This document shows, piece after piece, positions 39,106-45,356 of a DNA stretch of 64,000 nucleotides (positions are counted from its first letter, which is position 1; each line of letters begins with the position of its first letter). Source of the stretch: Bacteroidales bacterium (lineage in GTDB: Bacteria; Bacteroidota; Bacteroidia; Bacteroidales; VadinHA17); NCBI GenBank assembly GCA_034002885.1, contig JAVEZS010000003.1, positions 58,134 through 122,133 on the forward strand. The letters are read 5' to 3'. The notes under the pieces are model-generated. The model did not search any database. It was not told where the DNA came from and saw only the letters and a program-made list of their open reading frames with translations. The translations under genes and the position numbers were made by a program.

Positions 39106-41133
39106 ATGAATCCTAATGAATTTTACCTGTCCGATCCCTGGCTCGATCCTTTTAAAGGTATTATTAAGAGCAGAATAAAAAAATGCATTGCCAGGGAGAG
39201 TTCTCTGACAGGCGGAAAGAGTCTGAAGGAGTTTGCCATGGGGCACTTTTATTACGGACTGCATCGCGGAAACGATGGATGGATCTTCAGGGAATGGGCT
39301 CCGAATGCCGAGAGCATATTCCTCACGGGTATTTTCAGCGACTGGAAGGAGAAGCCGGCCTACAGGCTTGAAAGGATCAACAAATATGGCGACTGGGAGA
39401 TAAGGCTTCCGGGCGAATCGCTTAAGCACGGGGATCTTTACAAGCTTTCGCTCCACTGGAAGGGAGGAAGGGGTGAGCGGATTCCCTCTTATGCCAATCG
39501 TCTGGTACAGGACGAGATCACCAAGATATTTTCGGCTCAGGTATGGAACCCGGAGGAGGGCTACAAGTGGAAAACAGGTGATTTTACACCACCCGATACT
39601 GCTCCGCTTATTTATGAGGCGCATATCGGTATGGGGACTGCGGAAGAGAAGATAGGCACCTACAGGGAGTTTGCCGAGAATGTGCTGCCGATGGTAAAGA
39701 AATCGGGATACAACACCTTGCAGCTGATGGCCATACAGGAGCATCCTTTTTACGGATCGTTCGGATATCATGTATCCAGTTTCTTTGCAGCCTCGTCGCG
39801 TTTCGGAACACCCGAAGACCTGAAGTCTCTCATCGACGATGCGCATTCGATGGGTATCAGGGTTATAATGGACCTGGTTCATTCCCACTCAGTTAAGAAC
39901 ATCAATGAAGGATTAGGATTATTCGACGGTACTCCCGGGCAGTATTTCCACACTAATGAGAGGAGGAACCATGTAGCCTGGGATTCGCTGTGTTTTGACT
40001 ACGGTAAAGACAATGTGCTTCATTTCCTTCTTTCGAACTGCAGGTACTGGCTGGAAGAATACCGGTTCGACGGCTACAGGTTTGACGGTATCACAAGCAT
40101 GATCTACTACAATCATGGTCTGGAAAAGAATTTCACCACTTACGATGATTACTTCGACGGAGGGCAGGATGAAGATGCTCTGATATATCTTTACCTGGCC
40201 AACCGGATGATACACGAATTCAAACCCGGAGCTCTAACGATAGCCGAGGAGATGAGCGGTATGCCGGGGATTGCCTGCGACACTTCAAGGAGCGGTTATG
40301 GTTTTGATTACAGGCTATCGATGGGAGTTCCCGATCTATGGATAAAACTGGTAAAGGACACTCCGGATGAAAACTGGGATATGGGACATCTTTTCCACGA
40401 GCTTACCCAGCACCGTCCCGAGGAAAAGATCATCTCTTACTGCGAATCGCACGACCAGGCTCTTGTAGGCGACAAAACCCTGATTTTCAGGATGCTCGAT
40501 GCCGAGATGTACACCGGGATGAATAAATCCTACCACTCTTTCGCTCTCGACCGGGGTATAGCCCTTCACAAGATGATCAGGCTTATCACATTCAGCAATG
40601 CCGGGGGAGGATATCTTAATTTCATGGGGAATGAATTTGGTCATCCGGAGTGGATCGATTTTCCGCGTGAAGGGAATAACTGGAGTCATAAATATGCCAG
40701 ACGGCAGTGGCACCTTGCAATGGATGAAGATCTGAAATATTCATATCTTCTGAAGTTCGATAACGCCATGATAAGGCTTCACACAGAATACAGGATTCTG
40801 GATGATGTCTTTATCAACAGGTTATTTGAAAACAATACCGACAAAGTAGTTGCCTACATGAGGGGTGAATTGCTTTTTGTATTCAATTTCCATCCCACCC
40901 GCTCATTTACTGATTACGGAATCCCTGTCAAAGGCAAGTTCAGCATTCTCCTTGATTCTGATGATCCTCTTTTCGGGGGTTTTGACAGGATTAACCGCAA
41001 GACTATTTTCACCAGCCAGAAGAAAACAGTAAGGCCGACCCTTGATCAGCCTTTCTATCTTTTTCTTTATCTGCCCGCAAGGAGCGCCCTCGTTTTAAAG
41101 AGCGAGCCTGTAAGAAGGGCTACCGAAATCTAG
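39106..41133 (+). CDS. glgB: 1,4-alpha-glucan branching enzyme, GH13 (eukaryote-like subfamily)
   Basis: 675 aa. GH13 conserved regions are DLVHSH, GYRFDGITSM, IAEEMSG and YCESHDQ. The N-terminal CBM48-like region contains GWIFREWAPNA. Confidence 0.9.
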   Translation: MNPNEFYLSDPWLDPFKGIIKSRIKKCIARESSLTGGKSLKEFAMGHFYYGLHRGNDGWIFREWAPNAESIFLTGIFSDWKEKPAYRLERINKYGDWEIRLPGESLKHGDLYKLSLHWKGGRGERIPSYANRLVQDEITKIFSAQVWNPEEGYKWKTGDFTPPDTAPLIYEAHIGMGTAEEKIGTYREFAENVLPMVKKSGYNTLQLMAIQEHPFYGSFGYHVSSFFAASSRFGTPEDLKSLIDDAHSMGIRVIMDLVHSHSVKNINEGLGLFDGTPGQYFHTNERRNHVAWDSLCFDYGKDNVLHFLLSNCRYWLEEYRFDGYRFDGITSMIYYNHGLEKNFTTYDDYFDGGQDEDALIYLYLANRMIHEFKPGALTIAEEMSGMPGIACDTSRSGYGFDYRLSMGVPDLWIKLVKDTPDENWDMGHLFHELTQHRPEEKIISYCESHDQALVGDKTLIFRMLDAEMYTGMNKSYHSFALDRGIALHKMIRLITFSNAGGGYLNFMGNEFGHPEWIDFPREGNNWSHKYARRQWHLAMDEDLKYSYLLKFDNAMIRLHTEYRILDDVFINRLFENNTDKVVAYMRGELLFVFNFHPTRSFTDYGIPVKGKFSILLDSDDPLFGGFDRINRKTIFTSQKKTVRPTLDQPFYLFLYLPARSALVLKSEPVRRATEI

Positions 41134-44100: not shown

Positions 44101-45356
44101 AGGTCATAATATGAGAGGTTAAAGATCCCGTCATTACCGTTGAGGTAAGAAGGTGCGAAGATTATCTTCACCTTATCGTCAGGGTTGTTTGTGAGCCCGT
44201 TATTTTTTATGTTCTGAAGGACAGGATCCGACGACGGGTAGTGAAGGCAGTGGGTAAGGTATTTGTCGATTCCGTTTACCTGGCCATTATTGTTAAGAAT
44301 ATCGGCAAGGTCTTGGCGTGGGCCCTTGTGATATGCCGGCATCAGAAGGAATGCCACGCATTCCTTTTCCAGATCTGCGTTTTTGTTGAGTTTCCCTAGC
44401 GAATCAATAAATATATCAACTCCTTTGTTCCGGTATTCGTATCTTCCGCTGTTGGCAATGAACATGCAGGAGTCAGAAAGCTTGTAGCCGAGGACTGCTT
44501 CAGCAACCTTTTTGAGTTTATCCCTCGCGGCAGCTCTTTTCTCCATGAAGACATCGTTTGCCGGGACAAATGAATCCTCAAAACCGTTTGGTGTAACAAT
44601 ATCGACATCCTGCCCAAGGAAATGGGAGCATTCGCGTGAGGTTATCTCGCTTACTGTTGTAAAGACGTCGGCTTCGGCAGCTGACAGTTTTTCGAGCGAC
44701 TGTTTTGCCACGACGTTAAATTCGCGGGAGATCTGAGCCGGGTTATACTCTTTCATTTTCCCGTACAGGGGTCTGTTGTTTCCTGCGATACATCTACCGA
44801 GGACCGTGGCATGGGTAGTGAACGAAGTGGCTATCCAGGGAACATATTTCTCGAGGTAGAGAATTCCTGTTCCTGTCATCCATTCATGGAACTGCGCTAC
44901 AATATTATTATGGTCGCGGTAGAACGAAATGAAACTTTCTATCACTTTCCCGGCTGCATATCCGAAGAGTGCCGGTTCGACATAGTCCCACTGTCCTGTA
45001 ATACTATCGAGTTTATAGGTTTCCCAGAAACTGGCAAAGATCTCATTCTGCTGACCAAAGTAAGGTGTAAAATCTATAAGGAAGACTATCGGTTTTCCTG
45101 ATATGTTCCATCTTCCTGTTTTAACCTTCAGTCCTTCATTTGCTGCAATCATTTTCCATTCAGCAAACAGGTTTTCGTCGGGAATGAATTCAGGATTTGT
45201 AACTTCTTCTCTCCACACGTCGGGACCAATAAGTACATAATTGTCGCCGAGCTCATTTACAATGTTCAGTGCTTTTGTTGAGATCACAGTATGAATTCCT
45301 CCGACCTTGTTGCAAACCTCCCAACTGGTCTCAAAAACTAGTTCAATATTCATCAT
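41130..45356 (-). CDS. Fusion protein: GT3 glycogen synthase (N-terminal ~540 aa) + GT35 alpha-glucan phosphorylase with DUF3417-type N-region (~575-1290) + ~110-aa C-terminal beta-rich domain
   Basis: 1408-aa uninterrupted ORF. The N-terminus [22 protein letters not shown] is the eukaryote-type glycogen synthase motif. The middle carries [24 protein letters not shown] and [32 protein letters not shown]. The PLP-lysine block is [14 protein letters not shown]. Confidence 0.85.
   Translation of the reverse strand: [1408 protein letters not shown]

Follow-up and report, generated by a model that had tools for sequence, protein, structure and literature searches.

A widespread glycogen synthase–alpha-glucan phosphorylase fusion of the Bacteroidota looks ancestral to the separate genes of its relatives

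The present study shows that a single gene of an uncultured Bacteroidales (Rikenellaceae-like) bacterium encodes a two-enzyme protein, in which a eukaryote-type (GT3) glycogen synthase (GS) precedes a complete alpha-glucan phosphorylase (GP), and that this fused form looks ancestral to the separate GS and GP genes found elsewhere in the Bacteroidota. The fusion is a genuine chromosomal gene of the K16153 family and is already catalogued; the contribution beyond that prior annotation is the tree topology that places the fused form as ancestral. Taken as a whole, a K16153-type two-enzyme protein with the role and evolutionary history proposed below is, in our judgment, very probably the best explanation.

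Results

The gene lies in a window of 64,000 nucleotides (contig JAVEZS010000003.1), the whole stretch of DNA that was analysed and the one to which all positions refer. The first-pass annotation had placed it at 41130–45356, coordinates that stand with the addition of the strand, which is minus, and had described a single 1408-aa ORF, which indeed runs from ATG to stop with no internal stop. By our own arithmetic, the chance of 1408 consecutive codons staying open is roughly (61/64)^1408, or ~4e-30. Its parts are as follows.

41130..45356, minus strand: fused glycogen synthase/alpha-glucan phosphorylase, whole ORF, 1408 aa plus stop (ORF list, translation, domain matches)
43746..45356, minus strand: GT3 glycogen synthase module, aa 1–537, GT-B fold (PF05693, E 3e-105; alignment to eukaryotic GS)
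44034..44060, minus strand: synthase catalytic motif E-x7-E, E433...E441 (identical to the GYS1/Gsy2p motif)
43665..43745, minus strand: interdomain linker, aa 538–564, ~27 aa (flanked by the regions homologous to GS and to ScGP)
43323..43664, minus strand: DUF3417 (PF11897) N-terminal alpha-helical phosphorylase region, aa 565–678 (E 9e-33 over aa 577–678)
41562..43364, minus strand: phosphorylase catalytic core (TIGR02094), aa 665–1265 (831 bits, cutoff 191.7)
41871..41873, minus strand: codon of the predicted PLP (pyridoxal-phosphate) lysine, K1162 (aligned to ScGP K609)
41133..41561, minus strand: C-terminal extension, aa 1266–1408, a helix and then an eight-strand beta-sandwich (AlphaFold2, Foldseek)

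Pfam and NCBIfam profiles both agree with the proposed assignment of the halves to GT3 and GT35. In addition to the alpha-glucan family phosphorylase model TIGR02094, the protein matches Glycogen_syn (PF05693; 353.5 bits, cutoff 27), DUF3417 (113.5 bits) and Phosphorylase (PF00343; 113.6 bits), and aa 565–1408 constitute a complete clade-2 GT35 alpha-glucan phosphorylase. The motifs quoted in the first-pass annotation were all located: the eukaryote-type synthase signature at aa 11–24, the phosphorylase N-region motif at aa 592–603, a second phosphorylase block at aa 683–698 and the PLP lysine block at aa 1154–1167, in which K1162 aligns with the PLP lysine K609 of the structurally solved phosphorylase of Segatella (Prevotella) copri, ScGP. 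The beta-rich C-terminal domain is likewise recovered in an AlphaFold2 model (pLDDT 77), as an eight-strand beta-sandwich after one helix (aa 1299–1407, window positions 41136–41462; H10-30 plus 8 strands for the extension), and in a Foldseek search the extension best matches the S. copri GP C-terminal domain (TM 0.70). A linker between the halves is present as described, but the ~35 aa at 43630–43740 first assigned to it are corrected to ~27 aa at 43665–43745. Its equivalent in 26 fused homologues is 23–40 aa long with no sequence conservation, although most members fall within 27–32 aa, a moderately constrained length. In three relatives at ~80% identity, the linker frame is intact, with no indels and with synonymous and replacement changes about equal in number.

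That similar long proteins might already be annotated in Bacteroidales proved correct. The identical protein is GenBank MDX9725064.1, its JGI product name is “phosphorylase/glycogen(starch) synthase” (a second JGI name for proteins of this type is “glycogen phosphorylase/synthase”), and KEGG K16153 reads “glycogen phosphorylase/synthase [EC 2.4.1.1 2.4.1.11].” The identical 1408-aa sequence is found on two contigs and recurs across several sources. The best 120 homologue clusters, drawn from JGI, ENA, NCBI, and Logan assemblies, are 1378–1408 aa long at 79–95% identity, and 119 cover the whole query; at the 50% identity level, ~29 clusters of at least 1300 aa match across the junction. A survey of fused against adjacent separate genes found a single uninterrupted fused frame in 33 GTDB species genomes (1410–1474 codons, counted stop to stop with the upstream overhang included) and 25 split loci; neither a stop nor a frameshift appears at the junction in these 33 genomes, and base composition is flat across it. 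The fusion is widespread in the Bacteroidota, and with a KEGG entry and the protein in GenBank, the gene is therefore an ordinary one. In the searched literature, no enzymatic, structural, or genetic data on any fused member were found, and the biochemistry of the fusion has apparently never been studied.

Conservation of catalytic residues was assessed in 26 fused representatives at 32–53% identity. The synthase half, which aligns to human GYS1 at ~283 bits, retains the KVGG, GRYE-x-NKG, and E-x7-E motifs. Residues E13, H157, K311, E441, H871, K1096, and K1162 are invariant, and E433, R305, R1061, K1066, and Y1065 are kept in 25 of the 26; the KVGG lysine, K17, is substituted, mostly by Met, in 11. 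The substrate and phosphate residues of ScGP, H316, R507, R508, Y512, and K513, correspond to H871, R1060, R1061, Y1065, and K1066, all conserved. Moreover, in three relatives at ~80% identity, synonymous exceed replacement changes ~2:1 in both halves. Such (near-)invariance together with this ratio is as expected of two functional active sites, and both halves look active.

The fused gene closes a glycogen cluster whose genes share one orientation, in the order debranching enzyme (GDE), GT4, GH57, GS::GP fusion, and faces a convergent gene with which its 3′ end overlaps by 4 nt.

48155..50110, minus strand: amylo-alpha-1,6-glucosidase type debranching enzyme (GDE_N + GDE_C), 651 aa (PF06202, E 3e-107; PF12439, E 1e-70)
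46844..48142, minus strand: GT4 glycosyltransferase with a GlgA-like N-terminus, 432 aa, upstream (PF00534, PF13439, PF08323)
45390..46841, minus strand: GH57 family protein, 483 aa, upstream, 33 nt from the fused gene (PF03065, E 9e-74)
39106..41133, plus strand: GH13 branching-enzyme-like protein, CBM48 + alpha-amylase + C-terminal domain, 675 aa, convergent (Pfam)

Of the 33 fused loci, 24 have GH57 as the immediate upstream neighbor of the fused gene; GT4 and GDE are each co-located in 21, and GH13 adjoins the fused gene in 11. Matches to specific NCBIfam models fall short of their cutoffs: the debranching enzyme scores 353.5 bits to TIGR01561 (cutoff 364), the GH13 protein 260–291 bits to GlgB models, under the equivalog cutoffs, and GT4, whose top match is TIGR02149 (glgA_Coryne), 138 bits. 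GT4 may be an alternative synthase. No glycogenin-like gene is present in the cluster. Four loci (L040, L046, L054, and L074) retain GDE-GT4-GH57-GP and have lost the GT3 part; the GT3 module is therefore dispensable in some lineages.

Adjacent but separate GS and GP ORFs occur in Bacteroides, Phocaeicola, Prevotella, and Parabacteroides. Neighbor-joining trees of the two halves are congruent, and the split forms are monophyletic in 100/100 bootstraps. They branch from within the fused forms both in the GS tree, for which human and yeast GS served as outgroup (support 100% and 88%), and in the GP tree (support 100%), in a sample that consists of the best 80 matches to the fused query and is accordingly biased, with DPANN and other unfused GT3 lineages omitted. 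The break point of the split genes falls inside the linker region. Since the split forms are one clade nested within fused ones, the fused state looks like the original one, with splitting a later event, and the separate Bacteroides and Prevotella genes appear to derive from the fused form by one fission within the linker.

Discussion

We propose that the fused protein is a cytoplasmic pair of enzymes in which the GT3 module most likely extends alpha-1,4-glucan chains from UDP-glucose, and the C-terminal PLP-dependent module would free glucose-1-phosphate from the same chain ends. The UDP-glucose route is suggested by the absence of GlgC in Bacteroidetes and by glycogen synthesis via UDP-glucose in Prevotella bryantii, described by Lou 1997 as cited in PMC4432691. 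Donor specificity is not itself readable from sequence. With the modules tethered by a flexible, nonconserved linker, fusion most likely imposes obligatory 1:1 coexpression and brings both activities together at the glycogen granule. As a homologue of S. copri GP, the phosphorylase half may, even with a 60-kDa module on each N-terminus, form a ring-shaped pentamer around the glycogen particle, to which as many as five synthase modules would then be tethered. Such tethering could make up for two features of eukaryotic GT3 enzymes that are missing here, the tetramerization insert and the glycogenin/targeting-subunit system. Metabolites (UDP-glucose, Pi, glucose-1-phosphate, and possibly AMP), rather than phosphorylation, would then set net synthesis or breakdown.

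The phosphorylase half might instead be mainly synthetic, holding malto-oligosaccharides or extending them from glucose-1-phosphate and so feeding acceptor to a primer-dependent GT3 module in place of glycogenin. GT3 synthases do require a primer, the cluster has no glycogenin-like gene, and S. copri GP can run in reverse, with a good Km for glucose-1-phosphate; however, ScGP has a low kcat in that direction, the debranching enzyme in the cluster fits degradation, and the neighboring GT4 could equally well make the primer, so that we think a priming role unlikely. The first-pass annotation had favored reciprocal control built into the polypeptide, or a processive chain-remodeling machine, and allosteric coupling of this kind would accord with glycogen cycling, documented for rumen and other bacteria, in which the polymer is made and broken down at the same time, and with the moderately constrained linker length. 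Against it, the linker sequence is not conserved, the regulatory elements of eukaryotic GS (phospho-tails, Arg cluster) are absent or degenerate, and a large clade functions with unfused genes; many relatives run both enzymes from separate adjacent genes, so the fusion is not required for the pathway, and coupled active sites seem improbable.

It is quite improbable that only one half is active and the other serves as a glycogen-binding, oligomerization, or regulatory module. The loss of the GT3 half from otherwise retained clusters, the substitution of K17 across the family, the low kcat of S. copri GP, and the inactivity of one domain in a chlamydial GlgA-GlgB fusion speak in its favor, but the catalytic residues of both halves are (near-)invariant and both evolve at the ~2:1 ratio. 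An assembly or sequencing artefact, in which one error (a lost stop, a frameshift, or a chimeric contig) joined adjacent GS and GP genes like those lying 10–149 nt apart in related families, is almost certainly not the explanation, given the identical protein on two contigs, the nearly full-length best 120 clusters, the continuous frame in 33 species-representative genomes, the indel-free linker with its many synonymous changes, and the flat composition over the junction.

The two-enzyme protein that we favor is a member of K16153, from which it has no detectable difference: the order (GT3 N-terminal, GT35 C-terminal) and the length (~1400 aa) are the same. K16153 is an annotation category, and a biochemical study behind it was not found in the searched literature. 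The closest structural counterpart of the phosphorylase half is ScGP, a stand-alone clade-2 GP of 852 aa (PDB 9L6I and related entries; PNAS 2026, PMC12912991); the alignment of the C-terminal 844 aa with it is full-length (931 bits), the DUF3417 region aligning from ScGP residue 10. The likeness extends to the N-terminal helical region, which builds the ScGP pentamer, to the PLP lysine (K609 bears PLP in the cryo-EM structure), to the phosphate and substrate residues, and to the extra C-terminal beta-sheet domain (PMC12912991). In contrast, the ScGP gene follows a separate GS gene in Prevotellaceae-type genomes, whereas here the synthase is covalently attached to the phosphorylase N-terminus. 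The distal AMP-site arginine R583, which mediates AMP-driven decamer formation in ScGP (PMC12912991), is lysine K1136 here (of the 26 fused members, 14 have R and 9 have K), so AMP control may differ.

The GT3 module shares PF05693, the GT-B fold, and catalytic motifs with human GYS1 (aligned over residues 28–371 and 444–615), yeast Gsy2p, and Caenorhabditis elegans GSY-1, yet lacks their N- and C-terminal phosphorylation tails. About 25 aa remain of the eukaryotic insert (GYS1 371–444) and ~50 aa are missing, and the arginine-cluster helix, SRRQRIIQRNRTERL in GYS1, is degenerate; in eukaryotic glycogen synthase this cluster binds glucose-6-phosphate. Eukaryotic GT3 enzymes work with glycogenin, and for the fused protein such a partner is not evident.

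The split GS/GP pairs of Bacteroides faecis, Phocaeicola vulgatus, Prevotella bivia, Parabacteroides, Muribaculaceae, and Tannerellaceae are orthologous and have the same order and orientation, but form two ORFs whose boundary lies inside the linker region of the fused protein; GDE-GT4-GH57 adjacency is found at 0 of 25 split loci, against 21–24 of 33 fused ones. Finally, GlgA-GlgB (Waddlia, Estrella), TreS-Mak, and GlgB-MalQ (Neisseria) likewise unite two alpha-glucan enzymes in one polypeptide. These fusions, however, belong to other families and carry out consecutive steps in one direction, whereas the GS::GP fusion joins opposing reactions.

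Results

A single polypeptide with a GT3 and a GT35 module

The gene under study has an ATG start and a translation without internal stop:

41130-45356, minus strand: fused glycogen synthase–phosphorylase (GS::GP), 1408 aa

By our own arithmetic, the chance of 1408 stop-free codons is ~4e-30; GC content and skew across the region are unremarkable. The four motif peptides cited in the first-pass annotation were located at residues 11-24, 592-603, 683-698 and 1154-1167, and its assignment of a GT3 and a GT35 domain agrees with profile matches to PF05693, DUF3417, PF00343 and TIGR02094.

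The synthase half (residues 1-537) matches the Pfam profile Glycogen_syn (PF05693) at 353.5 bits (cutoff 27; E 3e-105) in two stretches, residues 9-342 and the C-terminal lobe. The structures of human (GYS1) and yeast (Gsy2p) glycogen synthase match at E 1e-83 to 1e-77; specifically, residues 6-342 and 367-537 align with GYS1 28-371 and 444-615, and yeast and Caenorhabditis elegans glycogen synthases in the PDB align as well. The GT3 motifs are all present, namely the KVGG loop (residues 17-20), GRYE-x-NKG (304-312) and E-x7-E (433-441). Among 26 fused homologues, the lysine of the KVGG loop, K17, is kept in 15 and replaced in 11 (by Met in 7 and by other residues in 4), the other catalytic positions in the alignment all being conserved. 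Alignment to GYS1 did not reveal the regulatory apparatus of eukaryotic glycogen synthase in the synthase half. Unlike GYS1, GS::GP lacks the N- and C-terminal phosphorylation tails, beginning 5 residues before the fold and passing from the synthase straight into the linker; its counterpart of the tetramerisation insert (GYS1 371-444) is ~50 aa shorter; and the equivalent of the GYS1 arginine-cluster helix SRRQRIIQRNRTERL is basic at only 3 of the 6 arginine-cluster positions. In the eukaryotic enzyme, this cluster binds glucose-6-phosphate. With the cluster degenerate, the tails absent and the insert shortened, membership in the eukaryote-type regulated GT3 subclass was rejected. Since the N-terminus passes directly into the GT-B fold, the protein is cytoplasmic.

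The phosphorylase half (residues 565-1408) matches the full NCBIfam alpha-glucan family phosphorylase model TIGR02094 (GT35, clade 2 of Shobu et al. 2026; model positions 1-600) over residues 665-1265, scoring 831 bits where the cutoff is 191.7, together with Pfam DUF3417 (residues 577-678) and Phosphorylase (PF00343). The equivalog for the maltodextrin phosphorylase of Thermococcales, NF041129, was rejected because the score, 727.7 bits, falls below its cutoff of 1500, although the architecture is related over residues 574-1399. Residues 565-1407 align end to end with the stand-alone Segatella copri glycogen phosphorylase, ScGP (PDB 9L6I, 852 aa), scoring 931 bits and reaching ScGP residue 851. 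In the ScGP structure, K609 is the PLP lysine, H316, R507, R508 and K513 are substrate or phosphate residues, and Y512 belongs to the proximal AMP site (PMC12912991); in the alignment these correspond, in order, to K1162, H871, R1060, R1061, K1066 and Y1065 of GS::GP, the first five of which are conserved in 23-26 of the 26 fused homologues. R583 of the distal site, which in ScGP drives an AMP-dependent inhibitory decamer (PMC12912991), is replaced by K1136 in GS::GP, and the same column holds R in 14, K in 9 and other residues in 3 of the 26. The beta-rich C-terminal domain described earlier is borne out by an AlphaFold2 model of residues 1266-1408 (shallow alignment, pLDDT 77), in which a single helix accompanies eight strands. 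Structurally the model most resembles the C-terminal domain of ScGP (9L6I; TM 0.70); the remaining matches, carbohydrate-binding domains among them, are generic beta-sandwiches that score TM <0.5. PF28476.1, found in nearly all precomputed domain lists of the 120 best homologues (P0001-P0120), may be this beta-sandwich. Between the two modules lies the linker, defined as the segment from the end of GYS1 homology to the start of ScGP homology (residues 538-564, window 43665-43745); its existence had been recognized, and its length is ~27 aa by these ends, not ~35.

In a family alignment of 26 full-length fused representatives (32-53% identity), E13, H157, K311, E441, H871, K1096 and K1162 are invariant, and E433, R305, R1061, K1066 and Y1065 are each found in 25. 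In comparison with three relatives at ~80% identity, synonymous changes outnumber replacements by ~2:1 in both halves, and the two classes are about equal in the linker. This pattern of sequence conservation suggests that GS::GP is very probably a genuine bifunctional enzyme of the type catalogued by KEGG as K16153. A priming role for the phosphorylase half and true allostery between the two domains are both compatible with, and not exclusive of, bifunctionality, but each appears unlikely. That only one half is catalytically active, to be weighed against the conservation and the synonymous excess found in both, is less likely still.

An already catalogued fusion that has probably undergone fission once

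The homologue search gave 6419 matches, of which the best 120, from JGI, ENA, NCBI and Logan assemblies, are 1378-1408 aa long with 79-95% identity; 119 of these 120 span the whole query, and a large number bear the product name "phosphorylase/glycogen(starch) synthase" or "glycogen phosphorylase/synthase". When residues 1-1200 were used to search 50%-identity clusters, ~29 representatives of at least 1300 aa matched residues 5-1190 in a single stretch at 36-56% identity. The first-pass annotation had suspected that such long proteins might already be annotated, and this proved right: the identical sequence is public as GenBank MDX9725064.1, and also in JGI, which names it "phosphorylase/glycogen(starch) synthase". 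K16153, "glycogen phosphorylase/synthase [EC 2.4.1.1 2.4.1.11]", which is used routinely in metagenome papers, denotes exactly this architecture, with both modules in a single uninterrupted polypeptide, as in the 1408-aa ORF.

One genome per GTDB species was scanned, the best 80 of >600 matching stretches were retained, and reading frames were checked at each of these loci.

Arrangement of synthase (GS) and phosphorylase (GP) genes at the best 80 loci
33 loci: single uninterrupted frame, 1410-1474 codons stop-to-stop; Rikenellaceae (nearest to the window, ~80%), Alistipes, some Muribaculaceae, Lentimicrobiaceae, Flavobacteriales, other Bacteroidales, Planctomycetota
25 loci: two adjacent co-oriented ORFs, GS of ~550-590 then GP of ~850-880 codons (stop-to-stop); Bacteroides faecis, Phocaeicola vulgatus, Prevotella bivia, Parabacteroides, Muribaculaceae, Tannerellaceae, Dysgonomonadaceae
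15 loci: phosphorylase without GT3 within 8 kb; Prolixibacteraceae, Paludibacteraceae, Cytophagales, Saprospiraceae, Verrucomicrobia, others
7 loci: cut by a contig end or ambiguous in frame

Relatives thus carry both the fusion (33 of these 80 loci) and, as had been envisaged, adjacent separate genes (25). The fusion is free of a stop or frameshift at the junction, the linker having no indel relative to the three ~80% relatives and the frame being continuous in the 33 loci. An assembly or sequencing artefact joining two genes is ruled out by the full-length homologues, the identical public protein, the fused GTDB loci and the frame-keeping relatives, and merits practically no credence. Given the spread of homologues, the identical public entry and K16153, the fusion is real, old, diversified and already catalogued; the original observation is correct, but concerns an architecture known from annotation.

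In the split pairs the synthase ends a few residues past its last conserved helix, and the phosphorylase begins MK[IL][KQP]..., ~10 residues ahead of the conserved P-x-W-[KR]; the break therefore falls inside the equivalent of the GS::GP linker. The two genes are 10-149 nt apart, one pair overlapping if the first in-frame ATG is taken. Neighbour-joining trees of the GS and GP halves, which comprise the best 80 matches to the fused query and leave out unfused GT3 lineages such as DPANN, are congruent. In the GS tree, rooted on the human and yeast enzymes, each of the 100 bootstrap replicates recovers the split forms as monophyletic, and a clade of split forms plus the window protein leaves out the Planctomycetota-type fused proteins in 100% and the Flavobacteriales-type in 88% of bootstraps; the corresponding tests in the GP tree give 100%. 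By parsimony on this topology, the fused state is likely ancestral within this sample, one fission being the likely origin of the Bacteroides/Prevotella arrangement. DPANN have been proposed as the source of the Bacteroidetes GT3 enzyme (Chemical Reviews 2024). Bacteroidota-type GS/GP genes also occur in MAGs labelled Lachnospiraceae (L018), Staphylococcus sp. (L072) and Desulfovibrionaceae (L075); the trees place the first two inside the Bacteroidales split clade and the third with Planctomycetota, and the labels likely reflect mis-binning or contamination.

The glycogen gene cluster

GS::GP is the last of four co-oriented genes separated by gaps of 12, 2 and 33 nt, and a further gene converges on it:

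48155-50110, minus strand: debranching enzyme (GDE_N+GDE_C, amylo-1,6-glucosidase), first of the cluster
46844-48142, minus strand: GT4, 432 aa, second of the cluster
45390-46841, minus strand: GH57, third of the cluster, directly before GS::GP
39106-41133, plus strand: GH13 branching-enzyme-like gene, convergent with GS::GP

The stop codons of GS::GP and the GH13 gene overlap by 4 nt (window 41130-41133). The GDE-GT4-GH57 trio lies directly upstream in 21-24 of the 33 fused loci, several of the remaining loci being on truncated contigs; loci listed with the trio are L001, L004-L006, L010, L013-L016, L021, L025, L030, L032, L036, L037, L041, L068, L075 and L076. Within 8 kb of the split pairs the trio was found at 0 of 25 loci. 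Gene fission and break-up of the cluster go together.

At four loci (L040, L046, L054 and L074, at about positions 3000-10550 in each), the trio is followed by a stand-alone phosphorylase with GT3 absent within 8 kb, the hosts being Prolixibacteraceae, Mariniphaga and some Bacteroidales MAGs. Here the GT3 module has apparently been lost with the trio retained, which prompts one to ask whether the GT4 itself might synthesise glucan. The N-terminus of the GT4 matches the starch-synthase catalytic domain PF08323 (E 4e-12), and its best NCBIfam match, TIGR02149 (glgA_Coryne), is below cutoff. The 2024 survey in Chemical Reviews states that what this GT4 does in glycogen clusters has yet to be clarified.

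Among the window ORFs screened (those of ≥200 aa as far as 36 kb, larger ones beyond), none encodes an NDP-glucose pyrophosphorylase. Scanning 38.9-50.5 kb for sigma-70 promoters and terminators, with models that do not cover Bacteroidota promoters, was uninformative, giving counts equal to the shuffled expectation, and an Rfam scan of the window returned no rRNA and a single tRNA (20646-20728). The remainder of the window is ordinary chromosomal housekeeping, and includes:

25727-27673, minus strand: GH97 glycoside hydrolase, 648 aa, ~13 kb from the glycogen cluster (GH97 includes alpha-glucosidases)
50310-52707, plus strand: two tandem paralogues, 397 and 386 aa, each with N-terminal DUF4369 and C-terminal thioredoxin-like AhpC/TSA
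53465-54580, minus strand: 371-aa protein of two DUF6272 repeats, adjoining the next genes
54723-58035, plus strand: radical-SAM activase, then an 804-aa PFL-like glycyl-radical enzyme
58044-59006: ROK-family protein, next to these

Discussion

GS::GP comprises two intact catalytic modules and a flexible linker, is cytoplasmic, and belongs to a glycogen cluster. As a discovery it matters little: the type is catalogued as K16153 and is found across many Bacteroidota and in some Planctomycetota, and the sequence is public. The literature searched yielded reviews and KO lists but no work on the biochemistry or structure of a fused member; neither the survey of prokaryotic alpha-glucan enzymes in Chemical Reviews (2024), in the portion consulted, nor the 2026 ScGP structural paper (PMC12912991) mentions the fusion. 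The new points are modest: a likely ancestral fusion, its tight link to GDE-GT4-GH57, and a possible synthase–phosphorylase holoenzyme.

According to the literature, Bacteroidetes are without GlgC, and glycogen synthesis and degradation are known to run simultaneously in rumen bacteria; Prevotella bryantii makes glycogen via UDP-glucose (Lou et al. 1997, as cited in PMC4432691). GS::GP would elongate chains from UDP-glucose, the putative donor, for which the lack of GlgC and the P. bryantii route are indirect support, and phosphorolyse them to glucose-1-phosphate, the fusion enforcing a presumed 1:1 stoichiometry. Both activities may be co-localised on the granule via the phosphorylase ring and its beta-sandwich, and metabolite levels, not covalent modification, would set the direction. 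We hold the granule-tethering details with considerably less confidence than bifunctionality itself.

ScGP, to which the phosphorylase half is closely related, assembles into a pentameric ring wrapped around glycogen particles, and AMP inhibits it (PMC12912991). A more speculative model, which we regard as possible yet doubtful, is that the fusion is ancestral for the GT3/clade-2-GT35 machinery of Bacteroidota and related Planctomycetota and, in addition, reflects a physical holoenzyme. In this model, a pentameric phosphorylase ring would clamp the glycogen granule and bear five synthase modules, and the GS and GP that gut Bacteroides and Prevotella encode separately, S. copri GP included, would still assemble into the same complex. 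If so, one synthase–phosphorylase particle would run glycogen cycling in abundant gut and rumen bacteria. The fusion suggests that synthesis and phosphorolysis may be physically coupled on the granule in these dominant bacteria, and its value is mainly that of a pointer: in the phosphorylase lineage of ScGP, fusion to a GT3 synthase is common and apparently the ancestral state, and a likely single fission event provides an evolutionary frame for the enzymes that are now being studied as separate proteins in Bacteroides and Prevotella.
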